From the NCBI GenBank assembly GCA_965231005.1, contig OZ246405.1:231204-295203 (forward strand): 64,000 nucleotides of DNA, read 5' to 3'. Positions 13,866-64,000 of this stretch are shown here, one piece after another; position 1 is the first letter of the stretch; every line of letters begins with the position of its first letter. The stretch is from an uncultured Gammaproteobacteria bacterium (GTDB taxonomy: Bacteria > Patescibacteriota > Patescibacteriia > Magasanikbacterales > UBA922). A program made the translations under genes and the position numbers. The notes below the pieces were generated by a model, which was not told the origin of the DNA, did no database searches, and saw only the letters and a program-made list of their open reading frames with translations.

Positions 13866-14395
13866 AGGCCGCCGAGAGTGGTTTCTAACGATACTACTGC
13901 TGAACACTGTGATGGCCGTGGCCACCTATGTGTTCACAGTTGCACGATTAGCATACCTTTTAAACTCTCGGCTGGCGCCCCCTTTGTTTTTTGCCTTCTT
14001 GCTCCATTGGAACCACCAACAATCCAACGCTAGCTATTCGATTTACCAATGTCGTTTCCTATCTTGGTTATTCGATTTGCTGGTCTTCATGAAGGATTCT
14101 GTTCCTCAGGGTCCCGCTTCAGGCATTGCAGTTCTTGCTCCCAACCTTGCAGTCGGGCTTTGGTACGAAGCTGACGATCGGCCGTGGTCTTCGATAGGCC
14201 TGTCAGCTGCGTTAGCATTCTCCTGTTGGGTAGCGGAAGCGCACTCGTTGCACTCCACTAGTCTTTGCGGCTCTTGGTTGCGCCTGCTTTCTAGGTTCCG
14301 ATACACTTGAGTACACATGTACTCTCATGTAGTTTCTCCCTTGGGCTAAGCGCGTTACCCACCTTGGATAACCGAGCAGTATAGCACAAAAAAAG
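13866..14395 (-). ncRNA. GC-rich structured non-coding element (candidate large ncRNA of unknown class, or a decayed gene remnant)
   Basis: About 530 nt, markedly GC-richer than its flanks. It has only short overlapping ORFs in several frames and no SD. Nested GC hairpins are visible (for example gccgagagt...actctcggc, and ggccgtggcc twice). It is bounded by minus-strand terminators at 14388-14411 and 13828-13849. I could not find the RNase P, tmRNA or SRP hallmark motifs. Confidence 0.3.
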
Positions 14396-14411
14396 GGTCT
14401 TGTCAAGACCC
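14388..14411 (-). terminator. Rho-independent terminator (minus strand)
   Basis: The hairpin gggtcttgtcaagaccc is preceded on the plus strand by an A-run, which is a T-run after the hairpin on the minus strand. Confidence 0.55.
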
Positions 14412-14447
14412 TAGCGCATTTAATGTGGTATTTTTAGCTTATTTTAG

Positions 14448-14475
14448 CAAAAAAAATACTCCCTTCCGGGAGTAT
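14448..14475 (-). terminator. Rho-independent terminator of the rpsF-ssb-rpsR operon
   Basis: The hairpin atactcccttccgggagtat with a flanking A/T-run lies 20 nt downstream of the rpsR stop. Confidence 0.7.
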
Positions 14476-14494
14476 TTCAACTATTTGATTTAGT

Positions 14495-14731
14495 TTATTT
14501 TGGCACAAAAGCCATAAGTCCTGCAATGCGAGCTTGTTTAATAGCTCGTGCAACCTTACGTTGGTGCCAGGCACACAATCCACTACGTCTTCGTGGTGCA
14601 ATCTTATTATAAGATGACACAAAACGACGCAAAAGATGAATGTCCTTGTAATTTACTTCTGGAATATCGTTTAAACAATAGTAACATTGTTTTGGTTTTC
14701 CAGCCTTTGTCTTTGCTTTGGTCTTTGCCAT
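14495..14731 (-). CDS. rpsR: 30S ribosomal protein S18
   Basis: 78 aa; CYYC...YKDIHLLRRFVS...GLCAWHQRKVARAIKQARIAGLMAFVP matches the S18 pattern. Confidence 0.9.
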   Translation of the reverse strand: MAKTKAKTKAGKPKQCYYCLNDIPEVNYKDIHLLRRFVSSYNKIAPRRRSGLCAWHQRKVARAIKQARIAGLMAFVPK

Positions 14732-14745
14732 AGAATATGGTGTTC

Positions 14746-15168
14746 TTAAAATGGAATATCTTCCACTTTTATTTCATCTGTTGATTCAGGTGGTGGTGGA
14801 GTGTTTTGTCCTTGTGATGCTGGTGCACCATTTCCACCTCGTGGTCCGTCGAGCATAATCATGTCTCGGACAATAATTTCTGTTTTGTATTTTTTTGCTC
14901 CGTCTTGGCCATCCCAACTTCGTGTTTCAATACGTCCTTCAACATACACACGTCTTCCTTTTGTCATGTATTGACCAGCGATTTCACCAAGTCTTCCCCA
15001 GAGTACACAGTTGTGAAATTCTGGTTTTTCTTGTTGATTTCCTGACTGATCTTTCCATGTCATGTTTGTAACAACAGTCATGCTTGCAACTGTTTTTCCG
15101 TTTGGAGTTGTTCGTAATTCTGGATCACGTACTACGCGTCCTAGAATTGATGCTCTATTGAGATCCAT
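14746..15168 (-). CDS. ssb: single-stranded DNA-binding protein
   Basis: 140 aa with an OB-fold N-terminus (ILGRVVRDPELRTTPNGKTVASMTV), a Gly/Pro-rich linker and a C-terminal DIPF tail. Confidence 0.9.
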   Translation of the reverse strand: MDLNRASILGRVVRDPELRTTPNGKTVASMTVVTNMTWKDQSGNQQEKPEFHNCVLWGRLGEIAGQYMTKGRRVYVEGRIETRSWDGQDGAKKYKTEIIVRDMIMLDGPRGGNGAPASQGQNTPPPPESTDEIKVEDIPF

Positions 15169-15218
15169 AAGATATGTGTTAAGAATGAAAGATACCTACT
15201 GAACGCAGGGACGTTCCA

Positions 15219-16034: not shown

Positions 16035-16125
16035 AGGCTATAAAGGCTCTTTTCAAAGCCATCAAAATTTATAAAGCCTTTATGGCCTTTGGAGCCTTTA
16101 AGGCTTTTATGGCCTTTTTACATTG
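16035..16125. promoter_or_regulatory. Array of 10-bp phased CCTTTA (GCCTTTA-W-GGC) repeats, putative curved-DNA / upstream regulatory element
   Basis: Read as aaggctataaaggctcttttcaaagcc...aaagcctttatggcctttggagcctttaaggcttttatggcc. The T-tract recurs every 10-11 bp. Similar arrays are at 6181-6223, 11715-11760, 17789-17835, 17949-17988 and 38975-39015. Confidence 0.5.
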
Positions 16126-16205
16126 ACTTTTAAGAAAAAAAATGATTATATTAGAGCGCCTTAGAGCAAGGAATCATCCTTGGTTCTGAACAAAGGGAGA
16201 CGACA

Positions 16206-17714
16206 ATGCAAAACCCCAGTACTGTGACTGACTGCCCGAACGTGATTGATGGCAAAAAAATCAGAGGATCCTCTGATCGCGGAGTCACCCAGACCAACCC
16301 AGCTGACACTCGCATCAATGTGAGCCAGCGCTGGGACAGCACTCGTGAAGATGCGTTCGATGCTGTTGCAACAGCCGAAGGAGCTTTCCCTTTCTGGGCC
16401 GCAACTCCTGCACCTGCCCGCGCCGAGATCATTCGAAGAGCTACAGAACTGATGGCCGGAAAACTGCACGAGCTGTCCATGGCCATGGTCGCGGAAATCG
16501 GCAAGACGCGTGTAGGTGCGCGAAACGAAGTCAAGAAGACCATCAAGATCGGCAACTTCATGGCCGGACTCGGCAGTCAGCCTTCTGGCTACGTGGTCGA
16601 GCCGTGGCAGCCTGGCGTGAGCATGTACACGCGTCGCGTGCCGCTCGGCGTGGTCTGCCTGATCACTCCGTTCAACTTCCCGCTCGCTGTTTCCTGGTGG
16701 AAGATCGCCCCTGCCATCATCGCTGGCAACACAGTCGTGTGGAAGCCTTCGCCGTTCGCCCCGATCACATCGTGCATGATCATGGATCTGCTGACTGAGG
16801 CTGGCCTGCCGCCTGGTGTTGTCAACCTGGTTCACGGCGGTCCGGCTGTGGGAGAGGCCTTTGTCAAAAACCCGGCTGTGGAGGCAGTGTCGTTCACTGG
16901 TTCGACCAAGATCGGTCGCCAAATCGCTGTTGATGCGATCATGCGCGGGCTTGACCCGGGCAAGATCCTGTGCGAGATGGGTGGACAGAACGCTGTGGTC
17001 GTTCGGCCGAGCGCCAACCTCAATGCCGCTGCACAAGCCATTGTGGATGGTGCGTTCAAAGGCGAAGGCCAGCGCTGCACTGCAACCAGCCGTGCGATCA
17101 TCCATTCATCGGTGTACGAACAAATGCTGGGCCTGATCTCTGATAAGACCAGCACGCTGGTCGTTGGTCCTGGGACTGACCCGAAGAGTCAGGTCGGTCC
17201 TCTGGTCTGCAAGCATGCCCGCGATAGCGCGGTCAGCAAGATCGATGATGCTTTCATGAACGGCGGCATGGGAGTGCTCTGCGGTGGCAATAGGCTGACG
17301 GGAGACATTCACGAGCACGGCTGCTTCATGGAGCCAACCATTCTCACCGGCGATCCGACCAATCCCGACCACACCCTGTTTCACGAAGAAGTGTTCGGCC
17401 CTGTATTGGCCGTCTGCAGAGGTGACAACATGGACACCGTGCTGCGTCTCGTGAACAGCACCGACCACCGACACGTGGCTTCGATCTTCACCGGTGAACT
17501 GCGAGAAGCACTCGACTTCGTCGACGGCGCCAACGTGGGCATGGTGCATGTGAACAACTTCACGTTCGGCGGTGATGAGCACGCTGGCTTTGGCGGCCTG
17601 GGTGGAGCGACCAGCTTTGGTCCCAAGGAAATGGGCCCTGACTGCCTCGACTTCTTCACCCGACCCAAGACCGTGGACATCAACTACGGAGACGCACCCG
17701 CACCCGGGCGCTAA
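16206..17714 (+). CDS. NAD(P)-dependent aldehyde dehydrogenase family protein (high-GC islet)
   Basis: 502 aa. It has the ALDH motifs FTGSTKIGRQI and EMGGQNAVVV and the catalytic Cys in GQRCTA. The SD agggag lies 7 nt upstream. Its GC content is far above that of neighbouring genes. Confidence 0.85.
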   Translation: MQNPSTVTDCPNVIDGKKIRGSSDRGVTQTNPADTRINVSQRWDSTREDAFDAVATAEGAFPFWAATPAPARAEIIRRATELMAGKLHELSMAMVAEIGKTRVGARNEVKKTIKIGNFMAGLGSQPSGYVVEPWQPGVSMYTRRVPLGVVCLITPFNFPLAVSWWKIAPAIIAGNTVVWKPSPFAPITSCMIMDLLTEAGLPPGVVNLVHGGPAVGEAFVKNPAVEAVSFTGSTKIGRQIAVDAIMRGLDPGKILCEMGGQNAVVVRPSANLNAAAQAIVDGAFKGEGQRCTATSRAIIHSSVYEQMLGLISDKTSTLVVGPGTDPKSQVGPLVCKHARDSAVSKIDDAFMNGGMGVLCGGNRLTGDIHEHGCFMEPTILTGDPTNPDHTLFHEEVFGPVLAVCRGDNMDTVLRLVNSTDHRHVASIFTGELREALDFVDGANVGMVHVNNFTFGGDEHAGFGGLGGATSFGPKEMGPDCLDFFTRPKTVDINYGDAPAPGR

Positions 17715-17735
17715 ATCCTACAACACACCGTAGGT

Positions 17736-17778
17736 CCCCTCGATCCGATACGTCGTAAGACAACGTCGGGTCGAGGGG
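17736..17778 (+). terminator. Long GC-rich hairpin terminator after the aldehyde dehydrogenase gene
   Basis: cccctcgatccgatacgtcgtaagacaacgtcgggtcgagggg followed by ttctttattt. Confidence 0.6.
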
Positions 17779-17991
17779 TTCTTTATTTAAAAGCCATAAA
17801 TGCTTTAAATGCCTTAAAGTCTCTAAATGCTTTTCAGAATATTTTGTCAAAACTTTTTTTCTCTTAAAGCCTTTACGTCTTTTTGTGACTCTGTTAAACT
17901 GAGCTCATTAAATAAGCCTATAATCCTTGCACAACGCCAAAGACTGCCTCTATGGCATTTTGAGCCTTTAAAGCCTTTACGGCCTTTTCAT

Positions 17992-24607: not shown

Positions 24608-24848
24608 ATGTTTATTTTTATGTTTATTTTTTCTCACCGATGCGAGATTTTCAGTATATTTTGTACTTAAAAACCTTTTTTTGACACGGTGAGTACTTGT
24701 ATTATAGCACATTTTTGGGTGTTTGTCAAGCCCTCTGGCTACAAATTGTATACACTAGTGTAGACAAATATTCGTTTTAGGAACAAACCTTGATTTATCA
24801 CGGCCTACATGATAATGTCCAAGCACAAAACCAACAAGGGGGTTTAGC

Positions 24849-25106
24849 ATGGGACTTAAAATCGTTGTGAACGACATTCTGCTCAACCAGGAAGCGCAAG
24901 GCACAAGGAAGTGCAAAGGCATGCCCAAGTGTTCCGAGTCGACAACATACGGAATGGTCGCTTCCTTCACTGGCACGGACAATGTTGGACCGTTCGCCGG
25001 CACCAAGGTGACGGAGCATTGTTGCAGCAAAACGACCTGCAAAAACGTGGCTGGACAGAAGGCGGCAGATGCTCTCGGGAGGATCGCGAAAAGCTGTGTG
25101 AAGTAG
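24849..25106 (+). CDS. small Cys-rich protein (85 aa), high-GC islet
   Basis: MGLKIVVNDILLNQEAQGTRKCKGMPKCSES...HCCSKTTCKNV...KSCVK has 7 Cys. A strong SD aagggggt lies 6 nt upstream, and its own hairpin terminator is at 25129-25185. Confidence 0.6.
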   Translation: MGLKIVVNDILLNQEAQGTRKCKGMPKCSESTTYGMVASFTGTDNVGPFAGTKVTEHCCSKTTCKNVAGQKAADALGRIAKSCVK

Positions 25107-25128
25107 TCGACAAGATCATGCTCAAAAA

Positions 25129-25185
25129 AACCTCCTCACTGACGCGTCGCACAGACAAGTCGGTGAGGAGGTTTCTCTATTTTTA
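25129..25185 (+). terminator. Rho-independent terminator
   Basis: aacctcctcac...gtgaggaggtt followed by tctctattttt. Confidence 0.65.
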
Positions 25186-26307: not shown

Positions 26308-26451
26308 ATGAATGCAATACTTTACAGTATGATATCACAAAAGTCAATTTGACATTCAATTATCAGTGTAGTAATCTATGTATAACAATTCAAAAGTATC
26401 AAGAAGGACAGAGGGAAATGGCCCGTTGACGTCCTACCAACCTAGTGCACA

Positions 26452-26560
26452 GTTTGACAACCTCGACTCACTGCGATAAGGTGGTACATCCATCCCAGCA
26501 AGGGAACGATACGCTCTAAAAGAGAAAAAAATCTTCTTGCTGCTTGCAAGTTTTTTTGAT
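26452..26560 (+). ncRNA. candidate small RNA transcription unit (promoter to terminator, no ORF)
   Basis: TTGACA-N17-TAAGGT at 26452-26480 is followed by about 80 nt with no ATG-initiated ORF. This is followed by the hairpin cttgctgcttgcaag and a T7 run at 26536-26558. Confidence 0.3.
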
Positions 26561-26642
26561 GCAGAAATATATATTACTGTTGTGTATACTTCTGCGTTAA
26601 CAAACGCAAACCTCGAAACACACAGGCATAAGGGGGTGTACA

Positions 26643-27965
26643 ATGCCACATGTTTTCCTTGGAAATTTTGACCAATTCTTCGATGGTCCGCCAACTCGAA
26701 AAGACGCTCACAAGATCTTTCGTCTTGGAGACAGAATCACGCACAATACTGTCGAAGTAGCAGGGTTTGACCCTGACTCAGTCGGCATTCTTCCTTCGCA
26801 GCCAAGCCGAGAGTACCTCAGCTACCTCCAGCACCAGCTCTACCGCTGTGGGAGCAGCCTGCCAAGATTTGTCGCACCAACCACTGTTGATCCAAATCGA
26901 CTGTGTCTGGCAAAGGCGCTTCTTGAAGACAAAGCACTCATGAGGGAGCTGAAGAGGAAAAAAGGCTGGGTCGTTCATGGCCTGATTTCTTCTCCTGACC
27001 TGACAGAAGTCGCAGAAGCCCTCGGCGGAACGGTTGCACCGATGACAGACCGTGCTATGCGAGCAGGAATCGCCATGCGCATCCGCAGCAAGGGCTGGTT
27101 CAAGGCAATCTGCAGTCGAAAGGACATCAACATCAGGACTCCAGAAGGCGTGTGTGTTGATTCGATTGGAAACGCTGCACATGTTTGCCTTAATCGGCTT
27201 GAGCGTGACATCGATCTGATGCTCAGAATCGACATCTCTGCTGGTGGCCTGGGCAACCTCGAGTTTCTTCGAAGTCTCTTCGATGGCGAGCTCTCATTCA
27301 GAACGGTTCTCGCAACGCTTCAGCACAAAAGCCCAGAGTCTTGGGCTGGCAAGCTCATTCATGTCGAAACCAATCACGAGACTGTTCACGACCTGGCAAG
27401 CGTCTACTACGTCGATGACGAAGGACCCAAATTCCAGTGCCTGGTCGACCGAAAGGTCAAAAAGGGTGAGTCTGGAGGAGCAATCTGGCCCTCGACCTGC
27501 CCTGAGCCGCAAGCACAGGAAATCCGACAGGCGTCTGATCGGTTCATGCAACTTCTCTGGAACATTGGATACCGTGGCTGGGCAGACATTGACTGGGCGA
27601 TTCTCAAAGATGGAAGCATCATGGCCTTTGAGTGCAATGCGCGCTGGCTGGCCACGAACGCTCTCCTGTCCATGCTGAATCGACACGAACTCAATATGAG
27701 CCAGCTTGCTGGGGAAAGCATCGACTACCTGAAACTGCCGCACCATGTTGACCAAGCACAATTTTCTGCCTTCATGCTGCGAGGAAACCAACCTACAAAC
27801 AGGCGAATGTGGACTCAGGCAGAAATCATGATTCCAGCTCAGAACGGTTCAGCGTCTCTGGTCATTCTTGGCCAGGATGCAGACAGCATCGATCTGAGAA
27901 AGCGACAGATCTACTCATGGTGTAGGGAAGGCTCAAGCCCAAAAAAGCCGCGTGCAGCACTCTAG
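26643..27965 (+). CDS. ATP-grasp-like ligase family protein A (high-GC islet)
   Basis: 440 aa. The C-terminal IGYRGWADIDWAILKDGSIMAFECNARW carries the ATP-grasp E-x-N-x-R metal-binding motif. The SD aagggggt lies 6 nt upstream. It is a paralog of the 35514..36854 gene. Confidence 0.6.
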   Translation: MPHVFLGNFDQFFDGPPTRKDAHKIFRLGDRITHNTVEVAGFDPDSVGILPSQPSREYLSYLQHQLYRCGSSLPRFVAPTTVDPNRLCLAKALLEDKALMRELKRKKGWVVHGLISSPDLTEVAEALGGTVAPMTDRAMRAGIAMRIRSKGWFKAICSRKDINIRTPEGVCVDSIGNAAHVCLNRLERDIDLMLRIDISAGGLGNLEFLRSLFDGELSFRTVLATLQHKSPESWAGKLIHVETNHETVHDLASVYYVDDEGPKFQCLVDRKVKKGESGGAIWPSTCPEPQAQEIRQASDRFMQLLWNIGYRGWADIDWAILKDGSIMAFECNARWLATNALLSMLNRHELNMSQLAGESIDYLKLPHHVDQAQFSAFMLRGNQPTNRRMWTQAEIMIPAQNGSASLVILGQDADSIDLRKRQIYSWCREGSSPKKPRAAL

Positions 27966-28052
27966 CTAGCAAAACACAACAAAGGGGGGTTCCAGGATGC
28001 ATCGCGTCCTGGAACACTCAGCTGAATAAGAATACCTCTTATTGAGTTGAAT

Positions 28053-28082
28053 AAAAAAGCAGGCAAAGACCTGCTTTTTTGT
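28053..28082 (+). terminator. Rho-independent terminator
   Basis: aaaaaagcaggcaaagacctgctttttt. Confidence 0.7.
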
Positions 28083-28338
28083 TTACTTGGGTTGACGGCC
28101 TAGGTGCCCAATTTCTCACACCAATCCCCCCATCCCAAGTATCCATTCACAGGGACTCGGAAGAGTCCCCACGTCTTATGGGAGACGAGAAATGAGTTCT
28201 ATTATGGAGATGATAACTCTCCAGTCAATATGTATATTGATATAGAACTGTTTCGTTTTGATGATCATATGCGTGTTTGCATATGGGACAACAATGATGG
28301 GGCTTACTAGCCCCTGTGAGTGGACAAAAAAACGCCTA

Positions 28339-28636
28339 GTTGGGCAGAATGAATGCGAGTCAATTGTCCCGTCTACGTTACGCAGACTACAATACCGGAC
28401 ATACGTTTCCGGAAGGCGTTACATGACGTGCGTCAAACCCTTAACTCTACATCCATTGGGGTCTGCCCAACGAAAGCGTTTTATGTGTTGAATTTTGGAT
28501 AGATCAGTAGTATATCATAAATAAAAAAGCCTTTTAATTGGGCGGAATGTTGAGTCGATCCTATCATCTGTGATACGAGGAGGCGTTACTCGATAGTTAT
28601 TATCGAACCCTCAGACCAACTCTGTAGATTCCGCCT
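28339..28636 (+). repeat. Two tandem, diverged ~100-130 nt structured elements (each closed by a 9-10 bp stem) upstream of the IS1595 transposase gene
   Basis: Unit 1 (28339-28471) is closed by gttgggcaga...tctgcccaac. Unit 2 (28538-28636) is closed by gggcggaat...attccgccc. Both begin TTGGGC(A/G)GAATG(A/T)(A/T)G.GAGTC, are preceded by an A6-7 run, and are followed by a CAGTA(G)TATA motif. Confidence 0.45.
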
Positions 28637-35056: not shown

Positions 35057-35464
35057 ATGAGTGACAAGCTACCAAACTTTTTTGAAAACAGAAATGAACC
35101 ATGGCGCTTTGAAGATGTGTTAGATTTTATACGCACACATTTTGATGTAAAAGATAATGTTTCATATCGTGTTGGTGAAAAACAAAATAGTGCAGATGAA
35201 AACCAACGAGCACTTATTGTTTTGGCATATGCACAACTCATGAACTATACATTCAATCAAGTAAAAGCATTGTTTGCTGAACATGATCATTTTGCAATTG
35301 CAATGCCTGAAACAAGACAAGGAAGAAATATTTTGGAAGTTAATAATATTTATTCAAAACTTCTTAAAGAGGGATTGGATTACAATGTAAAAATAAATGA
35401 CGTACCCGAGTATTTTGAAATTCCAAATACTGTTTTAACAAAAAAAAGCGCGCGCCTTGCATAG
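35057..35464 (+). CDS. HopJ-type-III-effector-family (PF08888-like) protein
   Basis: 135 aa; FEDVLDFIRTHFDV...VGEKQNSADENQRALIVLAYAQL follows the HopJ-family pattern F-x5-I-x3-Y/F-D...GE-x2-N-x-A-x-EN...AYAQL. Confidence 0.45.
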   Translation: MSDKLPNFFENRNEPWRFEDVLDFIRTHFDVKDNVSYRVGEKQNSADENQRALIVLAYAQLMNYTFNQVKALFAEHDHFAIAMPETRQGRNILEVNNIYSKLLKEGLDYNVKINDVPEYFEIPNTVLTKKSARLA

Positions 35465-35513
35465 AGCAGAGACGCGCTTAGAAAACCCCCTTGTTCGTTC
35501 TTGTTCCGTTTTG

Positions 35514-36854
35514 TTATCCACCGACTCGATGTCGCACTTCCTGAAGCAGCTCTTGCACTCGCAGTGCTGCGTTTTTGTTTCTACCATGACGAGACATTGC
35601 CACGAGACTGAACTTGCCAGGAAGCAAACCTGTCATCAGCGGCAACACACCTTCGTCACCATCTGGAAGTAGATCTTTGATGGTTCGCTGCAGCTCAGCA
35701 AAGTCACTTACAGCACCCGAGGCTGGCCACACATTGCTCATGAGCACTGCCCATGCACCACCATGCGCTGCTTCGAGTTGATTGAGTACTGACTTGGGAT
35801 ACTGCGACGCAGTCATGCGCGGATTTGGATCCACGAACCGCCAGTCAAGCATTTGCCCGTTTCTCATTGCCGTGATTTCGTCGCGAGTCAGGTCAGTGTG
35901 ACTACCGAACTCAGTCTTTTTTCCGCAAATGCCAATGGCATCGCAGCCAATCTGACCTCGATAACCCATGAGCCACCAGATTTGTGCAATCCTTCGTCCA
36001 CGACGTTGCAAACACGCAAGATCGAACTTGCTGAAACCTGGGAGTGCATCTGCACTTGCAACCAAGTTGCCAGCATGATCTTTTCCGTGAAGAATGATCT
36101 GCGCGTTGACAAACACGTCCTCAACACCGTCGTCTGTCAAAGACATTTGCACTGCAGCATCGACAATGTCTGCGTATCCAGCTTCTGCCAGAATCTCAGT
36201 ACCTTGTCCATTGCAGTGCTCACGACCGTAGCCGTCAATGTCTGCCTGTGTTCTGACAATTGCAGTACCAACACCAGAAGCCCAGGCATCCCGCTTGAAA
36301 ACAGAAAAGTCCGGAGACTTGATAGTGTGGTTCACTCGCATGAGCGTTGCATGTGCTGCATGAAGTTCTGCTGCACTCGAGCAAATGCGAGCAGGAACAA
36401 CAATGTAGTCCATGCCGCAAAGACGAGCCATTCTGTGAAACGCAATCTTCGATTCGATTTGCTGCGTCACCGATGCTTTGGCGCTCCACACGTGCTGAGA
36501 TGAAAGTCCCAGCTCGCACGTCACATCAGCTTCACGCTGACCAACATAGAAGTACTGCAGTCGCAGGTCACCTTGAGACCGAACATGATGTTGAATCGTG
36601 TCTGCATGTCTGCCAGAAGTGACACCGCCGTATACATCCTCAAGCGGTACAACGTGCTCTGCACCAAGGCCGTTTTTCCTCCACAAACGATGCTCGTTTG
36701 GGATCTCTCCAGTGGCAGAAACGAATGCGATTGGCACGTCCATGGAAATGCCGCGGCCGCCGTATGGACCAACATTGAGCCCTGGCAAAAAGCCAAAGGC
36801 ACTTTCTAGGCACCATACGCCGACCAGAGCTGGTCGCTTTCTTTTATGTCCCAT
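35514..36854 (-). CDS. ATP-grasp-like ligase family protein B (high-GC islet)
   Basis: The start is at ATG 36854 (MGHKRKRPALVG...), which has the SD aaggggaaag. The C-terminal LMGYRGQIGCDAIGI block is homologous to protein A (IGYRGWADIDWAIL). The opposite-strand ORF 35853..36503 is an antisense artefact of the high GC content. Confidence 0.55.
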   Translation of the reverse strand: MGHKRKRPALVGVWCLESAFGFLPGLNVGPYGGRGISMDVPIAFVSATGEIPNEHRLWRKNGLGAEHVVPLEDVYGGVTSGRHADTIQHHVRSQGDLRLQYFYVGQREADVTCELGLSSQHVWSAKASVTQQIESKIAFHRMARLCGMDYIVVPARICSSAAELHAAHATLMRVNHTIKSPDFSVFKRDAWASGVGTAIVRTQADIDGYGREHCNGQGTEILAEAGYADIVDAAVQMSLTDDGVEDVFVNAQIILHGKDHAGNLVASADALPGFSKFDLACLQRRGRRIAQIWWLMGYRGQIGCDAIGICGKKTEFGSHTDLTRDEITAMRNGQMLDWRFVDPNPRMTASQYPKSVLNQLEAAHGGAWAVLMSNVWPASGAVSDFAELQRTIKDLLPDGDEGVLPLMTGLLPGKFSLVAMSRHGRNKNAALRVQELLQEVRHRVGG

Positions 36855-37273
36855 TGTTCTTTCCCCTTGTGTTGAACGTGAATGGATAAAAGCTCTTTTT
36901 GTTAATAAGAGCCTTCTAAGATGTACAGCATACACCTGAGTAGGCTCTTATTTTTCTGGATTAGGTTACTACAGAAAATTGATTTGAGCAAGATTTGTAA
37001 TGAACGAAATAAAAAACACCGCTGAGCGGTGATTCTTTTGTATGTCTTATTTACTTAAGCACATGTACAAAAACCACCGCTTCTGGTGAGAAGGAGGAGG
37101 TTTAGGAGAAGATGTGATTTGTGCCTCATATTCATATATTTTTATCCTAGCACGACGTGTTTGATCATGCAAGTAAAACAAAAAAAGTCCAAAAATGGAC
37201 TTCTTTTGTTGGCGCCCAAGTTTATTAGACTCAGGCACCCTCCTTTTTCTTGATTTTCCTTGTACTGTGATGA

Positions 37274-38875: not shown

Positions 38876-38974
38876 TGTGGACCTCCTGGTCTTGGGTTTT
38901 GAGCGACCCTTGTGAAAATCGAACCGCATCAATAAAACCAGTTTTTTAGCACTTTGTCAAGAAGAAAAATGCGC

Positions 38975-42644: not shown

Positions 42645-42673
42645 AAATCTCCCTAAAAATGGGAGATTTTTTG
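42645..42673 (+). terminator. Rho-independent terminator
   Basis: aaatctccctaaaaatgggagatttttt. Confidence 0.7.
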
Positions 42674-42768
42674 TTTGGAGCCAGGTATTTAGCTTTACAA
42701 AGCAGTATTTTTGTGGTACGCTCGCCACAGAACACATACACGGCCAATCCATGGCCTAAGGGGGTAGT

Positions 42769-43500
42769 ATGATGTCTTCACACGATACAAACGTATCTAG
42801 TGGCAGCGCAGTTTCAACACCGCGCCGATCTGGATCACAGAAGATGCGCGCAAGGCCTGCACGTCTTCCAAGAGCACAGCATGCATCAGTGCGAACTGCA
42901 CTCGAAGAATGTTGGAAACGGTTCGCACCAGAAGGAACAACACTGACTAACACTGCTGACGGACGAGAGCCAGTACTCCTTCGTTCCTTCCTCATGCTGA
43001 TAATGCACGAAGTTGTTTTCATGAGCGTCGAGGACATTGCAGAACTGCTTGGCTCAAGAAACTCACAAGGGGTTCACTACCAGATCCAGGCTCTTCGATC
43101 CAAAATCAGCCAAGATCCAAGCCTGACCGTGCGTATCAATGAGACTGCTGCTCTGTTCTTCGACACCTCGCCGTCTCTGATCTATGCAAAACCAAGCCAA
43201 GTGGTTGCTGCTGTCTCTGAGCACTATCGCACGCCAAGAAATGATCTGCTCAAAAAAGAAGACGGCAGAAAAGAGACGCGAGAGCGACAAATCCTGATGT
43301 ACATGCTCAGAACGCATGCTCGCATGAAGTTCAGGCAGATCAAGGAAATGCTAGGGATCAGAAACCGACAAAATGTACACCAGGCAATTGGCGGCGTCCA
43401 ACGAAAGATCGAATCAGATCCTGACGTTGCTGATGAAATCCGCCACATCGCTGGTAAACTTCCGCAACAGAGCCACATCAGCGACACAGAGGCTGCATGA
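42769..43500 (+). CDS. protein composed of two tandem DnaA C-terminal (domain IV, Bac_DnaA_C-like) HTH domains, no AAA+ domain (high-GC islet)
   Basis: Repeat 1 is RSFLMLIMHEVVFMSVEDIAELLGSRNSQGVHYQIQALRSKI. Repeat 2 is RERQILMYMLRTHARMKFRQIKEMLGIRNRQNVHQAIGGVQRKIESDPDVADEIRHI. Both align with this window's own DnaA domain IV ([38 protein letters not shown]). The SD aagggggt is present upstream. Confidence 0.6.
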   Translation: MMSSHDTNVSSGSAVSTPRRSGSQKMRARPARLPRAQHASVRTALEECWKRFAPEGTTLTNTADGREPVLLRSFLMLIMHEVVFMSVEDIAELLGSRNSQGVHYQIQALRSKISQDPSLTVRINETAALFFDTSPSLIYAKPSQVVAAVSEHYRTPRNDLLKKEDGRKETRERQILMYMLRTHARMKFRQIKEMLGIRNRQNVHQAIGGVQRKIESDPDVADEIRHIAGKLPQQSHISDTEAA

Positions 43501-43594
43501 TTCAGACATCATACAAACAACACAAGGAGGGTGGAGGTGGTTGCAAATCATCTCTCACCAACTACACTCTTTTAACAAAAGATTGTTGAGGAAT

Positions 43595-43623
43595 AAAAAA
43601 TCTCCAAAGCGGAGATTTTTTGT
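43595..43623. terminator. bidirectional terminator between the DnaA_C-domain gene and polA
   Basis: aaaaaatctccaaagcggagattttttg. Confidence 0.7.
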
Positions 43624-43634
43624 TTGTTTAACTG

Positions 43635-48728: not shown

Positions 48729-48905
48729 CATAATTATCAAAAATATCTAGTAGTACTATCTTAATATAATAAATAAAGAAGTCAAAACATTGCAACAAAA
48801 AACATCGATCATCTCGATGTCTTTTGTATACGCCGCATGTGAAAGTTCTCCCAATTCTTTCGCGGCGCAAAGTCTCTTGGAGTTCAGTTGTGGTTGCTCG
48901 TGTGG

Positions 48906-49547
48906 CTACTCGTCGTCAACAGGGGTGTACGGATCGCACCAGTCCAACCTGTGGTTACGCGTGTTTGCGTGCTGCGCCCTGAGCCTGAGGGTCTCGCCAA
49001 ATCCCCGTGCGAATTTGAAGTTGCCCTGGACAGGAATGATCAACCGAAAGCCCTTGAGCAGAAGCGTTTTGGCATTCGCGATCTCTCGGTCACCAGACCG
49101 CCGATCCTTGTCGATCTTGTCGATGGCACGCGCGACGTAGAACCCTGCCTTGGCCGAAGCGTTGACGAGCCTGTCCCGTTGCCTGGTCCTGATGTCGAGC
49201 TTTTCCTTCAGGCGGTCTTTCTCTGCCTCCAGCGGTTCGAACTTACCACGAAGCGTCTGGGTCTCTGCCTGAGCCGCTGCGAGCTTGCCCTGCGTTTCAT
49301 CCAGATCTTGCTTCATCGCAGACCCAAACTTGTGCGCCTCAACAAGAAGCAGTATCAGACCCACAATGACGACCATGAAGAACACAAATGTGATGATGAA
49401 CATACCACCCGTGTACTGAACCTCACCATCTACATCTGAAATCAGCGCCAGGACGACTATTGCTGAAACGGCCAAAAAGCCGAGCACCGCAATAAACCCG
49501 ACAAAAAGGTGGAGAGCCTTCCGCATCTCCATGCCGAACAGTTTCAT
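48906..49547 (-). CDS. hypothetical membrane protein with coiled-coil (high-GC islet)
   Basis: The start is at ATG 49547 (MKLFGMEMRKALHLF), which has the SD agagagg. It has two TM helices, a coiled coil (KQDLDETQGKLAAAQAETQTLRGKFEPLEAEKDRLKEKLD) and a C-terminal domain. A terminator lies at 48808-48835. Confidence 0.55.
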   Translation of the reverse strand: MKLFGMEMRKALHLFVGFIAVLGFLAVSAIVVLALISDVDGEVQYTGGMFIITFVFFMVVIVGLILLLVEAHKFGSAMKQDLDETQGKLAAAQAETQTLRGKFEPLEAEKDRLKEKLDIRTRQRDRLVNASAKAGFYVARAIDKIDKDRRSGDREIANAKTLLLKGFRLIIPVQGNFKFARGFGETLRLRAQHANTRNHRLDWCDPYTPVDDE

Positions 49548-49748
49548 GTTAACCTCTCTTGTGCATTGCACAGAAGTCGCTCCACAAATCTTGACGACCG
49601 GCCTCTTTCGGCCTAAGGCTGTGTTGATCATGCTGGCCTTGTCCAACACAATCAACGACAGGTCCCTCTCCCGTCGTATTTGCTTTGCTACGTTTGCTCC
49701 AATTGAGCATAAAGCACTCTTTGGTAAGAGTGCTTCTGCTTAATTAGA

Positions 49749-53563: not shown

Positions 53564-53668
53564 GGAATATTTTACGCAATCAAAAAAGCACCCGAAAAGG
53601 TGTTTTTTAGATTGACAGCTCAATCTCATATTGCTAGGATAACTTATCCTCAGACAAAAGGAGTTTAC

Positions 53669-54115
53669 ATGGAGACCAACAATAGCCGCCGTACTCGTCA
53701 CATCTTGTCAGGAATCATTTTCGCATCTATACCAATCATCTTGTGCGTTGGCGCAGCAAACAACCACGGATACTGGCAGGCAACACTCCAGGACTTGAAC
53801 GACGCAAATATGGCACTCGAGGAAATCGAAGGTCTACTTGAGTCGCTTCATTGTTTTGAACGTGAAGCTGGCTTTCCAAAGAAACATATTGATGAACGAG
53901 AACTTGCGATCCTCGAAGTTCAGAAAACGACCAGAGAAACTAGGAAAGCCATTGAAAAAAACAAAGAGCTCCCTTGGTACGAAACCTTGATCTTCAGCTA
54001 CGCAACAAGGTCTCACATAAGTGGTTTCAAATACCACTGGTTTCTCAAGAGGAGAAAACTACTGATCCTGGTCAAGGATCGACTTGTTGCTGGAAAAGAG
54101 TGTTTGAGGACCTAG
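53669..54115 (+). CDS. hypothetical membrane protein (moderately GC-enriched, own SD and terminator)
   Basis: The start is at METNNSRR with the SD aaggag. It has one TM helix. A hairpin lies at 54142-54170 and a terminator at 54185-54215. Confidence 0.45.
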   Translation: METNNSRRTRHILSGIIFASIPIILCVGAANNHGYWQATLQDLNDANMALEEIEGLLESLHCFEREAGFPKKHIDERELAILEVQKTTRETRKAIEKNKELPWYETLIFSYATRSHISGFKYHWFLKRRKLLILVKDRLVAGKECLRT

Positions 54116-54221
54116 AAGGAGTGGAAACATCGAGAAGTTCGCCTGTGTTTGCTTGTCTTTCACAGGCGGGCAAATACTACTATCAAAAAAACACCTTTTC
54201 AGGTGCCTTTTTTATTTTTAA

Positions 54222-58843: not shown

Positions 58844-58901
58844 TAATATCCCCGGTTTTGACCGGGGTTTGTGTTATACTTAGAAAATAAAAATAATATA
58901 T

Positions 58902-59216: not shown

Positions 59217-59219
59217 GAT

Positions 59220-59597: not shown

Positions 59598-59601
59598 ACG
59601 T

Positions 59602-60330: not shown

Positions 60331-60339
60331 AAAAAAGTT

Positions 60340-60368
60340 GCCCCGCTAGCCAAACGACTAGCGGGGGT
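60340..60368 (-). terminator. hairpin terminator downstream of the small GC-rich minus-strand gene
   Basis: gccccgctagccaaacgactagcggggg, with a T-run on the minus strand after a short spacer. Confidence 0.55.
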
Positions 60369-60398
60369 TGGAGGAAAAGTTCGTGTGTCTCGTTGCTC

Positions 60399-60641
60399 TC
60401 AGGTCATGCAGACGCGTTCGACCGTGATCTTCTTCATGTGGTCGTAGCGGAGCGGCAGTCGACCGCCGGCCTTCTTGTTGAAAACGACACCGTTCTCGCC
60501 GAGGTCTTCGACGGTGCTGGAGTCGATCGTGCAGACGTTGCCGTCTGAAAGTTTGATCTTGAGTTGGCCGAACGGTCCAGCCTTATCGAGCTGGTGAACG
60601 AGAGATACGAACATTGGATGCATTATAGAAACCCCCTTGTG
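60399..60641 (-). CDS. small hypothetical protein (80 aa), high-GC islet
   Basis: My own translation from ATG 60641 gives MHPMFVSLVHQLDKAGPFGQLKIKLSDGNVCTIDSSTVEDLGENGVVFNKKAGGRLPLRYDHMKKITVERVCMT. The SD aagggggt lies 7 nt upstream. The 226-aa track ORF 60399..61079 is a read-through artefact. Confidence 0.55.
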   Translation of the reverse strand, partial: HKGVSIMHPMFVSLVHQLDKAGPFGQLKIKLSDGNVCTIDSSTVEDLGENGVVFNKKAGGRLPLRYDHMKKITVERVCMT

Positions 60642-60705
60642 TCCAACAGTGGACATACAATCTATATCATAGCACAGAGGTTTTGTCAAGTGTAAATACA
60701 TATTT

Positions 60706-61032: not shown

Positions 61033-61148
61033 ACAAAAAAATACCTTGCTAGGTATTTTTTTGACTGATCCCGAACCACAATGGTGATGTGCGGCTCGGG
61101 AGAGCAGTCATCATACGTTAGTGGTTCAGGGTTTGGTTGTTGCTTCAG

Positions 61149-61688
61149 CTACTTCCACGGTCGCTTGAGCGCGTTTTCAAGATCGGTGTGCGAGAGCGAG
61201 AACTCCACAGTCATCGGATCAGGAGCAGTACGGCCCTGTTCATGGTCCATCATTGAGATGTGCCATTCGATCTTGTGTTTCCACGCCCATTCTACAGCGC
61301 GGACGAATTTTTGCACCTCGTCGTTGTTTGAAAAACGCATCGATGCTGTGATGTACACAATGCCAAAGTCCAGAGCCTTGCGTCCATTTTTGAGGACCAT
61401 TTGAGGTCTGACCGTGAGATCGAAACGGTATCCACACTCCAATTGGATTTGGGCTCGGAAGGTCTGCTTGGACTGGTCGAGCCGATCGTCCCAGGTCTCA
61501 GGATTCCTGCTATTTTCTCCATACACACCCATAGATTGGCATGTCGGCAGCTTCCAACGGATAGGTCGGAGAATCCCTCGGTGTGAACGTACGAGCTCAG
61601 GGCCGAACATGGCTTCCAGTTTCCGCATGAGACAGCGAACACTGAAAGGCATTTGACCGTTTTCAACAGTTTTGGTGGGCTTTGTCAT
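61149..61688 (-). CDS. hypothetical protein (179 aa), high-GC islet
   Basis: MTKPTKTVENGQMPF.... The SD aggagga is present upstream. It has no recognisable motif. Several antisense ORFs in this region were rejected. Confidence 0.5.
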   Translation of the reverse strand: MTKPTKTVENGQMPFSVRCLMRKLEAMFGPELVRSHRGILRPIRWKLPTCQSMGVYGENSRNPETWDDRLDQSKQTFRAQIQLECGYRFDLTVRPQMVLKNGRKALDFGIVYITASMRFSNNDEVQKFVRAVEWAWKHKIEWHISMMDHEQGRTAPDPMTVEFSLSHTDLENALKRPWK

Positions 61689-61886
61689 AATATCCTCCTA
61701 GCGTGGAAGAAACGTTGGCAGACCTGAGCATGACTACTCAGCAACGCCAGGACTAGCACGTCCTGTGGTATATTTAGTCTGCATAGCTGTGGTTGCACAG
61801 CAGAATTGAGACAGGATGTTGTCTCCATTCTGCTACCCAACTTTTAACGCCTTATTATGACAGGTTTTTGTTGTTTTGTCAAGACC

Positions 61887-62123
61887 TTAGGATTCTTCAA
61901 TTTCAACAACTTTATTTCGCGCGTTTTTTCCCTTTACAATGGTTATTAACGACTTGGCTACTCTAAATTTCTTGCTCAAAAGTGTAAGAAGTTTTTTGTT
62001 TGCTTCACCATCAACTGGTGGGGCAGTTAAATAAATTTTATAACTTCCATCAGACAGTGGTCCAACAATTTCATTTTTTGAAGAACGCGGCATGACTTTT
62101 ATTGATATTTTCATAACTAACAA
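61887..62123 (-). CDS. DUF167 (YggU/UPF0235) family protein
   Basis: KISIKVMPRSSKNEIVG...YKIYLTAPPVDGEANKKLLTLLSKKFRVAKSLITIVKGKNARNKVVEI is the DUF167 pattern. Confidence 0.7.
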   Translation of the reverse strand: MLVMKISIKVMPRSSKNEIVGPLSDGSYKIYLTAPPVDGEANKKLLTLLSKKFRVAKSLITIVKGKNARNKVVEIEES

Positions 62124-62239
62124 TTAACAAAAAACAAAGAACAAGGATTTGGATTGAAATATAATTACAAGACTAATATAGCAATAAAATAAAATTGTTT
62201 CTATGTAGAAAAAAATCTCGGTTTCCCGAGATTTTCTTG

Positions 62240-63628
62240 TTATTTGTTATTTGTTTCTTGTTCTTTTTTACCATGCTCACAACTTTCTCCATCTGCATGG
62301 TCATGACCACAACCAAATTTTTTCAGTTCAGGATCATTCAATATTTCTTCACCAAGAACTTTTACCTTTAACCAACCCATAACTTTTTTATTTTGCATTG
62401 CTGTTGCAATACTTTCACGAACTTCTTGCTTATCAAGATTTTCTAGATATTGAGGATTGTCTTTGTACATATCTTTCATCATATTGATTTCACCATCAAG
62501 TTCTTCTGGTGAGATAACAATGTTTTGTTCAATTGCAACTTGACGGGAAACAAGAGCAGCCTTTGCGCGTTTTTCAGCTTGCGCAGCAAAGTCATCAAAC
62601 AATTCTTGTTCTGTTTTTTTAATATCTTGCAAATATTGTTGAATTGAAATATTATTTTTTTCCAAATCTTTTGTTAATTCATAAAACATTTTTTGTCTTT
62701 CATTGTTCATGAGCACATCTGGAATTGGGTCAAATTTTGTTTTTTCAATAAGCTGTTCAAGAATAGCAATTTCTGCTGTTTGCATTGCTTTTTGCTCTGC
62801 TTCGTTCAATAAATTGCTATGGATTAATTCTCGCAATTTTGCTACAGACTCTTGTCCAAGTTTTTTTGCAAATTCATCGTTCATTTCTGGAAGCTGTCTT
62901 TCAAAAACATCTTTTACTGTTACTTTGAAATCAACTTTTTTTCCAGCCAGGTGTTTTTGATAATGTGTTTCTGGGAACGCAAGAGTAAATTCTTTTTTAT
63001 CATCTTTTTTTAATCCAGAAAGTTCTTCATTCAATCCTGGGATGTAATGTTTTTCACTTAAATATACTTGATGGTCTTTTGCTTGTCCGCCTTCGACAGG
63101 AACATTGTCAATAAGCATGTCCATATCAATAACAATTTTGTCTGTTCCTTCTGCTTTTCCATCTTTGATTACTTCTTTTGCTTGCATGCCTCGCAACATG
63201 TCAATTGTTTCGTCGACATGTGAATCTTCAACAGGTTTACGATCTTTTTTTACTTTAATTTTTGAAACGTCACAGAGTGTAACTTTTGGCATAAGTGCAA
63301 CAACGGCTTTGTAGACGATATCATTTTCTGGTGCTACTTTTTCAACACTAATCTGTGGCATACCAAGAGTTTCTAATTTTTCTTCAACAACAGCCTTATA
63401 AAATGTTTCTTTAATAACGTCTTCAAGTGCTTCTTGTAAAATGGCCATGTCACCAAGTTCTCGCTTTACAATATCAAATGGAGCTTTTCCTTTACGGAAC
63501 CCTTTGATATTTGCTCTTTCTGACAACTTAACAGCTGCTTTTTCAAGATGTTTTTGATATTCGTCTGGTGTTACTGTGATAGTAAGTTCAACTTGTGACT
63601 TATCTAATGTCTTTGTTGCGTGTTGCAT
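62240..63628 (-). CDS. tig: trigger factor with C-terminal Cys/His-rich tail
   Basis: 462 aa with an N-terminal ribosome-binding domain (GFRKGKAPFDIVKRELG), followed by PPIase-like and C-terminal domains. It ends with GCGHDHADGESCEHGKK. Confidence 0.85.
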   Translation of the reverse strand: MQHATKTLDKSQVELTITVTPDEYQKHLEKAAVKLSERANIKGFRKGKAPFDIVKRELGDMAILQEALEDVIKETFYKAVVEEKLETLGMPQISVEKVAPENDIVYKAVVALMPKVTLCDVSKIKVKKDRKPVEDSHVDETIDMLRGMQAKEVIKDGKAEGTDKIVIDMDMLIDNVPVEGGQAKDHQVYLSEKHYIPGLNEELSGLKKDDKKEFTLAFPETHYQKHLAGKKVDFKVTVKDVFERQLPEMNDEFAKKLGQESVAKLRELIHSNLLNEAEQKAMQTAEIAILEQLIEKTKFDPIPDVLMNNERQKMFYELTKDLEKNNISIQQYLQDIKKTEQELFDDFAAQAEKRAKAALVSRQVAIEQNIVISPEELDGEINMMKDMYKDNPQYLENLDKQEVRESIATAMQNKKVMGWLKVKVLGEEILNDPELKKFGCGHDHADGESCEHGKKEQETNNK

Positions 63629-63800
63629 AACATTGGTTAATTAGTTAATTTGTTGATTGGCTCTAATAGGTAGAAAAATCTACTAGTTAACTAATTAACC
63701 AATCAACTAATTTTCTATTTTGTTGCAGAAGTATAGCGTGTTTTTGAGGTATTGTCAAGGGATAATTTGCTTAATTAAGCTAAAATTAGATAAATTTTGC

Positions 63801-63829
63801 TTGACAAACACCCTTTTTTCTGCTATACT
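63801..63829 (+). promoter_or_regulatory. near-consensus sigma70 promoter TTGACA-N17-TATACT
   Basis: Read directly as ttgacaaacacccttttttctgctatact. The perfect 16-bp palindrome AGTGACAATAGTCACT at 63841-63856 just downstream looks like an operator. Confidence 0.5.
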
Positions 63830-63899
63830 AGGTATATCTTAGTGACAATAGTCACTTTTGTGTCATTTATATATAGATGATGCAAATAACGTCATATAT

Positions 63900-64000
63900 A
63901 TGCCTGAAGTAGGTAGCGCTGCCGCTGCAGCATCAGCTGCGAGAGGGGAAGCATTTAACGCCGATAGAGATCGGTTCCAACAAGGAACCAGCGTTGATCG
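63900..64000 (+). CDS. 5' end of a GC-rich ORF (MPEVGSAAAAASAARGEAFNADRDRFQQGTSVD...), runs off the window
   Basis: An ATG at 63900 opens a frame whose composition switches abruptly to GC-rich codons. Confidence 0.3.
   Translation, partial: MPEVGSAAAAASAARGEAFNADRDRFQQGTSVD

Follow-up and report, generated by a model that had tools for sequence, protein, structure and literature searches.

The stretch of DNA analysed here (hereafter the window; 64,000 nucleotides of contig OZ246405.1) is part of a ~1.23-Mb chromosome of a bacterium of the Patescibacteria, or candidate phyla radiation (CPR). The genes in its AT-rich part are core genes: rpsF-ssb-rpsR, ychF, an ABC transporter, rmuC, holA and polA, together with genes for a class A penicillin-binding protein (PBP) and trigger factor, dnaN-dnaA and rnpA-yidD. 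Between them lie short GC-rich islets, most of which carry one gene with its own promoter, Shine-Dalgarno (SD) sequence and terminator. These islets are the subject of this analysis. The window also carries CPR-typical genes (an array of T4SS_pilin paralogues and a gene for a DUF5667 protein), and the closest species representatives of its PolA are Falkowbacteria and other Patescibacteria (47% identity). These domains, together with the best polA matches, identify the host as a CPR bacterium.

The 51,979 nt outside the islets were used as the host reference; their GC content is 36.3%, with a standard deviation of 3.4% and a maximum of 48.5% in 400-nt windows. A sequence-only reading of the window had listed 12 GC-rich segments, and in the recomputed profile 11 of them are outliers, each 0.3 to 1.7 kb long with 46 to 59% GC and z scores from 3.1 to 13.3 (Table 1). 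If the structured spacer at 28.1-28.5 kb is counted in, they occupy 11.1 kb, corresponding to 17% of the window and 23% of its 13.8-62 kb part. The twelfth segment, from 63890 to the end, has only ~100 nt of raised GC and is too short to be judged as an islet. A GC-rich segment absent from that list, 21241-21739, was rejected as a further islet as it is the Pro/Gly-rich tail of a host protein.

The difference extends to all codon positions. The GC content at third codon positions (GC3) is 0.46-0.75 in the islet genes versus 0.19-0.31 (near 0.22) in host genes, and GC at the first and second positions (GC1 and GC2) is raised in the islet genes as well. In the islet proteins G, A, R and P (GARP) are increased and F, Y, M, I, N and K (FYMINK) decreased, that is, the amino-acid usage is of the GC type. 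Thus, every codon position as well as the amino-acid usage of the islets is atypical, which is how acquired genes are recognized by composition. The GC3 values form a series, with 0.65-0.75 for the units that encode an aldehyde dehydrogenase (ALDH), an M20 peptidase and a Cys-rich protein and for those at 49 and 60 kb, followed by units at 0.46-0.59 and a lower tier at 0.35-0.45 (DoxX, the IS1595 genes and a deaminase). A common donor was also sought by dinucleotide signature, but the delta* values of islets versus host (96-257) overlap the host scatter (93 +/- 36), the pieces of 0.3-1.7 kb being too short for this measure. The compositional mosaic had been described as the most unusual global property of the window, and it is indeed the dominant one.

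Each islet has the organization of a monocistronic transcription unit, in which an AT-rich sigma-70 promoter is followed by a leader that is GC-rich and contains a strong SD, by a single open reading frame (ORF) and by a strong hairpin. The promoters are close to the sigma-70 consensus, and the -35 box is a perfect TTGACA in seven of nine units. The mean SD-anti-SD duplex energy is -7.6 kcal/mol for islet genes versus -1.8 kcal/mol for 48 host genes (Mann-Whitney p = 0.001), and the best 3' hairpin averages -21.6 versus -12.3 kcal/mol (p = 1e-4). These values bear out what had been noted by eye: strong SDs in the islets and mostly none in host genes, long GC hairpins at the islet ends and, more generally, islets that look foreign and form separate units of one gene, each with an SD and a terminator of its own. 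No two of the 3' hairpins have the same sequence. The sequence AAGGGGGT occurs seven times in the window (one expected); four copies are islet SDs, one follows the stop codon of the ATP-grasp-B gene and the remaining two are located before polA and a pilin paralogue of the host. Since it also precedes host genes, AAGGGGGT is presumably a strong SD form that this ribosome can read. In the closest available relative, a Falkowbacteria metagenome-assembled genome (MAG; locus L002, 3832-3860, minus strand), the 3' end of 16S rRNA is GGAUCCACUCCUUUCU. Its anti-SD, CACUCC instead of the canonical CCUCC, fits the weak SD usage by core genes of the group.

The islet borders were set by a two-segment likelihood change-point. 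For eight of nine units the 5' border was placed 1-55 nt past the -10 box, while the 3' border falls in the terminator stem for six units and otherwise at the stop codon. The latter applies to the M20, DnaA_C and 53.6-kb units, whose terminators are AT-rich and of the host type. The promoters look host-made: besides the perfect TTGACA boxes, their spacers are AT-rich, and in the ALDH and M20 units the -35 box directly adjoins 9-nt repeat arrays of the host. This layout raises the question of retro-transfer, in which mRNAs of a host or prey would have been reverse-transcribed and inserted, each islet corresponding to one transcript from its start to its terminator hairpin. The position of both borders and the host-made look of the promoters agree with this idea. 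However, the AT-richness of promoters everywhere explains the pattern equally, three units end at the stop codon and have AT-rich terminators of the host type, and the window has neither a reverse transcriptase gene nor a poly-A or target-site-duplication signature. We regard retro-transfer as very improbable.

Table 1. Islet units and other features of the window, with GC-rich segments, and related features in comparison loci
Feature	Coordinates	Strand	GC-rich segment	GC, z	Elements
Non-coding 13.8-kb unit	13829..14406	-	13835-14378	50.7%, 4.9	promoter TTGACA-17-TATACT 14406-14378; ~540 nt; terminator 13848-13835
ALDH unit	16123..17787	+	16153-17779	58.8%, 13.3	promoter TTGACT-18-TATATT 16123-16152; SD GGGAG; ORF 16206-17714, 502 aa; GC3 0.68
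Cys-rich unit	24723..25176	+	24799-25172	52.4%, 4.7	promoter-like site ~24723-24754; SD AAGGGGGT 24836-24843; ORF 24849-25106, 85 aa; GC3 0.66
ATP-grasp-A unit	26349..28081	+	26393-28081	50.7%, 8.7	promoter TTGACA-17-TAATCT; SD AAGGGGGT 26630-26637; ORF 26643-27965, 440 aa; GC3 0.56
Mid-GC spacer	28082..28520			44%	nested hairpins, between ATP-grasp-A terminator and IS1595 transposase gene
ATP-grasp-B unit	35441..36960	-	35448-36935	51.3%, 8.5	ORF 35514-36935, likely start 36854, giving 446 aa; GC3 0.46; terminator hairpin 35445-35475
M20 unit	37176..38955	-	37274-38910	56.1%, 11.7	promoter TTGACA-17-TTTTAT 38955-38927; SD AGGAGG; ORF 37274-38875, 533 aa; GC3 0.65
DnaA_C unit	42662..43626	+	42713-43545	50.7%, 6.1	SD AAGGGGGT 42758-42765; ORF 42769-43500, 243 aa; GC3 0.48
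49-kb unit	48800..49745	-	48831-49745	53.3%, 7.5	ORF 48906-49547, 213 aa from SD-led ATG; GC3 0.69; hairpin ~48830-48870
53.6-kb unit (weaker, as first described)	53578..54216	+	53669-54172	45.6%, 3.1	promoter TTGACA-17-TAGGAT 53612-53640; SD AAGGAG; ORF 53669-54115, 148 aa; GC3 0.50
60-kb unit	60331..60688	-	60340-60625	55.9%, 5.7	promoter TTGACA 60688-60683; SD AAGGGGGT 60631-60638; ORF 60399-60623, 74 aa; GC3 0.75
61-kb unit	61043..61882	-	61070-61839	51.2%, 6.0	promoter TTGACA-17-CATAAT 61882-61849; SD AGGAGG; ORF 61149-61688, 179 aa; GC3 0.59
9-nt arrays	6167-6225, 11633-11754, 16003-16118, 17789-17997, 25185-25205, 38967-39012				host intergenic spacers
~60-nt motif	15942-16009, 20009-20075, 32951-33014, 33826-33854				upstream of host promoters
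Contig L001	14154-24302				99.98% identity
Contig L062	27274-41194				99.986% identity
Contig L064	6206-26647				99.99% identity
polA-near ORFs	L004:241-2406, L009:7480-9639, L035:9084-9926, L037:7069-7455, L038:8739-9431, window 42713-43545				GC-rich, SD-led

Family matches support the gene labels given in the sequence-only reading (ALDH, M20, two ATP-grasp proteins and a double DnaA_C). The ALDH assignment has a Pfam E value of 1e-127; the gene ends in a 14-bp GC hairpin (-30.3 kcal/mol), and its GC change-points were located 1 nt past the -10 box and, on the 3' side, 9 nt short of where the T-run ends. The Cys-rich unit has a 16-bp terminator hairpin (-32.2 kcal/mol), and its 85-aa protein matched no family in the family-profile scans. 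The M20 protein is a PepT-like di/tripeptidase according to its profile match. Its gene, previously given as 37270-38940, is on the minus strand at 37274-38875, with an AT-rich terminator at 37185-37202 and a host 9-nt repeat array abutting the promoter.

ATP-grasp-A matches the ATP-grasp peptide ligase in PDB entry 8ynd (E = 1.3e-8), and two hairpins follow its gene (27985-28015 and 28055-28081). In its 5' leader, 128 nt upstream of the start codon, a covariance model places a full-length SAM-I riboswitch (RF00162, 26393-26515; 50.5 bits versus a gathering threshold of 44.4). For this riboswitch, control of an orphan PGM1-like ATP-grasp peptide ligase is unusual; here the pair is found in a CPR genome. 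The family profile of ATP-grasp-B, for which the ENA gene call likewise gives 446 aa, matches PGM1 (3wvq) and 8ynd. Judged from their sequences, the two are PGM1-type ATP-grasp ligases unrelated to each other, and the idea of recent paralogues was rejected as their pairwise similarity is not significant.

The DnaA_C protein consists of two DnaA domain-IV repeats in tandem (internal repeat, E = 4e-11). The 49-kb unit has a long, GC-rich leader and encodes a membrane/coiled-coil protein with no family match of note in Pfam, NCBIfam, PHROG or PADLOC. The 53.6-, 60- and 61-kb units encode three small orphan proteins. Among these, the 179-aa protein of the 61-kb unit has no match in the same four collections; its gene has a GC-rich leader of ~160 nt and a hairpin at 61070-61110 (-27.5 kcal/mol). 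The 60-kb unit and the host gene upstream of it share a bidirectional terminator at 60340-60375.

Two segments are different in kind. In the 13.8-kb segment the ORFs are fragmentary, and none is long or credible. The minimum free energy of its minus strand is -190.7, compared to -155.3 +/- 6.5 for shuffled sequences (z -5.5); for the plus strand z is -1.9. Folding predictions thus make 13835-14375 (minus strand) a candidate for a large structured RNA of ~540 nt, although no Rfam family matches at E <= 1. The segment is probably GC-rich for its structure and not an acquired gene, and to that extent the proposal that all islets were acquired has to be amended. The spacer at 28082-28500 (~420 nt) has fold z scores of -6.0 (plus strand) and -8.6 (minus strand) and no significant Rfam match. 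Placing the two segments in one RNA family was considered and rejected; they are unrelated.

Abrupt compositional steps of this kind can also result from an assembly chimera, bin contamination or engineered sequence, and a chimeric or engineered assembly had been raised as a possibility. The MEGAHIT contigs L001, L062 and L064, assembled separately from two sequencing runs of ENA project PRJEB17505, agree with the window at 99.98-99.99% identity across most junctions (Table 1), and jointly they cross both junctions of the 13.8-kb non-coding, ALDH, Cys, ATP-grasp-B and M20 units. All junctions lie between promoter and terminator, with the host genes unbroken; the same pattern is present in unrelated CPR MAGs (see below), and a megablast of 48 kb against plasmids and phages gave no match. 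The suggestion of a chimeric or engineered assembly is thereby largely refuted, and we consider the chance of any such artefact close to negligible. In its favour, besides the abruptness, two islets contain ends of contigs from the same population, namely the start of L001 (14154) in one and the ends of L064 (26647) and of the L062 record (~26841) in the other. These ends may mark strain-level variation.

Where, then, do the islet genes come from? Databases of 1.8-5.8 billion proteins were searched, three times with a word index and once exhaustively with HMMER, and no relative above 59% identity was found there. The protein searches for donor lineages that had been proposed therefore identified none. 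For ALDH the top matches are other CPR (44-49%), in which the gene has the resident GC content. M20 has thousands of homologues, the best at 45-46%; those with names belong to Myxococcota, Bradymonadia and Planctomycetota (40-46%), and one relative is native to a 71% GC contig (GC3 0.90). For ATP-grasp-A no word-sharing homologue was present among 5.8e9 proteins. ATP-grasp-B has only 38 representative homologues among 1.84e9 clusters, of which most distant ones are GARP-rich. Its 59% relative is a single-gene islet (GC 62%, GC3 0.75) beside a tRNA on a contig of ~42% GC, and its 47% relative is ~5 GC points above its 43% GC contig, which is consistent with amelioration. As both of these closest relatives are in contexts unrelated to the window, it appears that a rare family entered low-GC genomes more than once and is now found in different states of amelioration. 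The hit lists, which are lists and not trees, give Myxococcota, Planctomycetota and similar groups for M20 and, at the top, CPR for ALDH, with too few relatives for the two ATP-grasp proteins. From sequence comparison, both M20 and ATP-grasp-B look like families native to GC-rich bacteria.

Nor is there a specific link to phages, defence systems or plasmids. PHROGs and PADLOC gave nothing specific for islet proteins, the PHROG matches being generic enzyme-family ones (ALDH, M20) plus a marginal one for DnaA_C. IMG/VR scans with three islet proteins returned no relatives, and tblastn of ATP-grasp-A and -B against plasmids gave no match.

The failure to find donors and the recurrence of the pattern across CPR lineages would also be expected if the islets were an endogenous class of genes, held GC-rich by selection or a biased process (mRNA stability, or GC-biased gene conversion at recombination hot spots) without any horizontal gene transfer (HGT). 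That the nearest ATP-grasp-B relative is likewise a GC-rich islet in a low-GC genome points the same way. Against it, amino-acid composition is also GC-type, the ALDH relatives in other CPR are at resident GC, the families of M20 and ATP-grasp-B seem at home in GC-rich bacteria, the ATP-grasp-B homologues are non-syntenic and the borders are sharp to within tens of nt. On balance, an endogenous gene class is improbable, and all evidence points to foreign, GC-richer sources of the islets.

The explanation that we favour, and hold to be probable, is that single, self-expressing, moron-like genes from several GC-richer lineages were repeatedly acquired by horizontal transfer into an AT-rich, SD-less CPR chromosome, with selection acting as a filter. 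About ten such genes, each a self-contained expression module, would have settled between core genes near the origin. They would come from several source lineages, and they differ in amelioration (GC3 0.46-0.75, with more at 0.35-0.45). Settlement would have been intergenic only, often at terminators between host genes, and in two cases with the resident terminator duplicated. The DNA may have entered by natural transformation and been integrated by illegitimate or microhomology recombination; selection would then keep those inserts that spare core operons and can be expressed. The idea of very recent acquisition survives in part. Taken together, GC1 and GC3 suggest little amelioration for ALDH, M20 and ATP-grasp-A, but with best relatives at 46-59% no donor is identifiable. 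The intermediate GC of ATP-grasp-B, DoxX and the 53.6-kb unit points to a range of ages.

A strong SD may itself be part of the filter. The predicted folding of the start region is stronger in islet mRNAs than in host mRNAs (-9.8 versus -5.7 kcal/mol; p = 0.002), and among host genes the most structured start region belongs to the only one that has a strong SD. It has been proposed that SD-less genes depend on an unstructured, open start region (PMC3121790). In line with this, the contrast in folding suggests why only SD-bearing GC-rich immigrants would be retained: GC-rich mRNAs would fold round the start codon, while the AT-rich host mRNAs stay open.

How the genes were inserted is less clear, and the search for marks of a mobile element was largely negative. 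Pfam scans of ~50 ORFs in the window detected two IS1595 DDE transposases but neither an integrase nor a tyrosine recombinase. The transposases are 43% identical to each other and bracket no islet, no islet being flanked by insertion sequence (IS) copies, and the repeat search in the window gave no attC-like family linking the islet ends. The longest direct repeat at the junctions is 6-9 nt for 10 of the 11 islets, as expected by chance (null 7.5 +/- 1.3). Integron- or transposon-like delivery, as had been put forward, is thus not borne out, and att-like cores or target-site duplications were rejected for all islets except the DnaA_C and 53.6-kb ones. One IS1595 element (31259-32888) is complete, with 25-nt terminal inverted repeats at 31259-31283 and 32864-32888. 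The second transposase gene, identified by its Pfam match, has mid-GC composition (GC3 0.45) and no recognisable ends; a transposase of this family had been expected within 26400-28500 and does exist, at 28734-29648 and hence outside that range.

The two exceptions both involve terminators. The DnaA_C unit, which has DoxX on one side and the convergent polA on the other, is enclosed by two copies of one host terminator, and an exact 16-nt direct repeat, GGAGATTTTTTGTTTG, is found at 42662 and 43611 and nowhere else in the window; the junction search that had been advised was therefore positive for this islet. For the 53.6-kb unit the neighbours are the PBP gene and a convergent gene, and a bidirectional terminator is present on either side in 35-nt copies that are 89% complementary (53578-53612 and 54182-54216). 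Two cases are thus documented in which insertion took place at a terminator and the terminator was duplicated. The duplication may be part of the mechanism or may merely mark where insertions are tolerated.

Comparison loci were anchored on PolA. Those with islets from low-GC CPR other than Saccharibacteria (L004, L009, L035, L037 and L038) contain GC3-outlier ORFs with SD energies of -9 to -12 kcal/mol, compared to -0.5 to -3 kcal/mol for other genes, and eight of nine such ORFs have no Pfam family. The density in the window, 12 outlier ORFs in 64 kb by the same scan, is the highest seen. L037 and L038 are from related genomes with flanks that are 82-93% identical. One unit has a common promoter, SD and terminator hairpin in both, and between these shared parts lie unrelated GC-rich lipoprotein-like ORFs of 128 and 230 aa (L037:7020-7500 versus L038:8690-9500). 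A second islet in L037 (L037:15372-16565) has at its flanks a perfect direct repeat of 71 nt, next to a tRNA, in a tandem cassette-like layout. The Buchananbacteria pair L009/L010 was tried as a second test of slot conservation and discarded; at 70-75% identity it is too diverged for intergenic borders. In every low-GC CPR locus with islets, a GC-rich, SD-led ORF is located within ~0.1-0.6 kb of polA (Table 1). This may be an insertion hot spot or a sampling effect, all loci having been fetched by PolA.

The observations in L037 and L038 keep a cassette-like reading alive. It holds that a dedicated mechanism, site- or structure-specific (e.g., for terminator hairpins), captures or exchanges single foreign ORFs in promoter-terminator slots of the host, with integron-like logic but at scattered positions. 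The duplicated terminators and the 16-nt repeat confined to the two DnaA_C sites, the 35-nt copies around the 53.6-kb islet, the common promoter-plus-SD and terminator with unrelated ORFs and the 71-nt repeat beside a tRNA all agree with such a mechanism, as do the start of GC-rich DNA just past host-style promoters and the AAGGGGGT element common to four islet leaders. It is countered by the lack of an integrase or recombinase in the window and of a repeat family common to the islet borders; in addition, the 3' hairpins are all different, for nine of the 11 islets no repeat at the flanks exceeds the null, AAGGGGGT precedes two host genes as well, and slot conservation is seen only in a distant lineage, not in this genome. 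We judge a dedicated cassette mechanism unlikely.

Several points nevertheless weigh against repeated acquisition of single genes as we favour it. The insertion mechanism is its weak point. A relative with an empty site was not obtained, since the PolA contig scan gave relatives of at most 47% identity and the metagenome contigs fetched with RmuC stop before the islets. The best identities are only 49% (ALDH), 46% (M20) and 59% (ATP-grasp-B), with none for ATP-grasp-A. GC1 versus GC3 suggests little amelioration, yet no donor was found. Moreover, the islet promoters look host-made, which random insertion leaves unexplained, and the slot shared by L037 and L038 with unrelated ORFs hints at an ORF-swapping process. 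In a bolder proposal, low-GC CPR would capture single foreign ORFs, in a manner so far undescribed, into host-made promoter-terminator slots, targeting terminators and swapping ORFs between a fixed SD and terminator as in L037/L038, from an essentially unsampled pool of GC-rich, SD-using sources (e.g., physical hosts or CPR-specific mobile elements). At present we consider this proposal speculative and rather unlikely.

Compared with known systems, the islets are closest to phage morons (for the concept, see PMC4378225 and PMC2920897). Like these, they consist of one gene with an autonomous promoter and a factor-independent terminator, have a deviant composition and leave their neighbours undisrupted. 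Unlike morons, they are in a cellular chromosome between core genes (rpsF, ychF, holA, polA, the PBP gene and dnaA) and not in a prophage, with no phage structural or integrase genes nearby; they are also very dense (17% of 64 kb), and their PHROG matches are generic and IMG/VR relatives absent. Integron cassettes are likewise single-ORF mobile units, often orphans, followed by a hairpin-forming element. In the window, however, there is no IntI, no attI, no attC consensus or family in a head-to-tail array and no shared cassette promoter (Pc); the islets have promoters of their own, and their hairpins, in contrast to attC, are mutually unrelated and resemble ordinary terminators. A composite transposon would have flanking IS or terminal inverted repeats and target-site duplications, and these are lacking. 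Classical genomic islands exceed 10 kb and have a tRNA, an integrase and direct repeats, while the islets are 0.3-1.7 kb with one gene each. Neither of the two tRNA genes of the window (33127-33199 and 46485-46556) is at an islet border.

The Lawrence-Ochman model of amelioration accounts for atypical GC at the three codon positions, and the spread of GC3 suggests different residence times. Acquired DNA usually has a higher AT content than the recipient genome, but this host is so extreme in AT that the immigrants are the GC-richer ones, and the islet genes look barely ameliorated yet have low identity to any sampled lineage. HGT into Patescibacteria as such is known: according to PMC12455944, it reaches up to 13% of genome length, with DNA uptake via ComEC and pili as the proposed route. 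Transfers were inferred in that study from donor-recipient pairs, mostly CPR to CPR, whereas the islets have no pairable donor, and an architecture with two classes of genes, an SD-less AT-rich core and SD-led GC-rich monocistronic modules, is not described in the passages searched. What is new is thus this two-class architecture, its recurrence across CPR, the absence of a sampled donor and the terminator and slot features; we do not propose a new category.

The chromosomal setting has further features. The dnaN and dnaA genes (minus strand) and rnpA-yidD (plus strand) occupy 55485-59868, and the cumulative GC-skew has its minimum near 56 kb. Hence, the window spans the replication origin, and the islets crowd the origin-proximal region. 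At its other end, at 150-6400 on the minus strand, about ten paralogous genes for membrane proteins with a T4SS_pilin domain (PF18895) form a tandem array.

The host intergenic spacers contain 9-nt periodic arrays of the type AAAGGCnnn or GCCTTTnnn (e.g., TAAAGCCTT, TATGGCCTT and TGGAGCCTT). They either directly precede a start codon, namely that of ychF and those of the two genes that end at 11628 and 6166, or touch a -35 box (ALDH and M20), and arrays of opposite orientation are mutually complementary. They were rejected as marks of islet junctions, as they are present inside host operons too. Moreover, a ~60-nt motif (GCTATTTTCACTTTTGTTTAAT followed by TTGACA) is located upstream of four host promoters, in both orientations, and may be the binding site of a regulator.

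CPR bacteria have tiny genomes and depend on other cells, so the route by which they gain new functions is an open question. The islets suggest that much CPR innovation may arrive one gene at a time, as ready-to-express modules, and they offer a concrete case in which a requirement of translation initiation would filter the foreign genes that stay. High GC3 together with a strong SD and an own terminator is a simple, donor-independent signature with which HGT can be mapped in CPR, and the combination of promoter, AAGGGGGT-type SD and terminator is a natural blueprint for expression cassettes in new CPR genetic systems. Slot exchange, if true, would be a new mechanism of gene capture.

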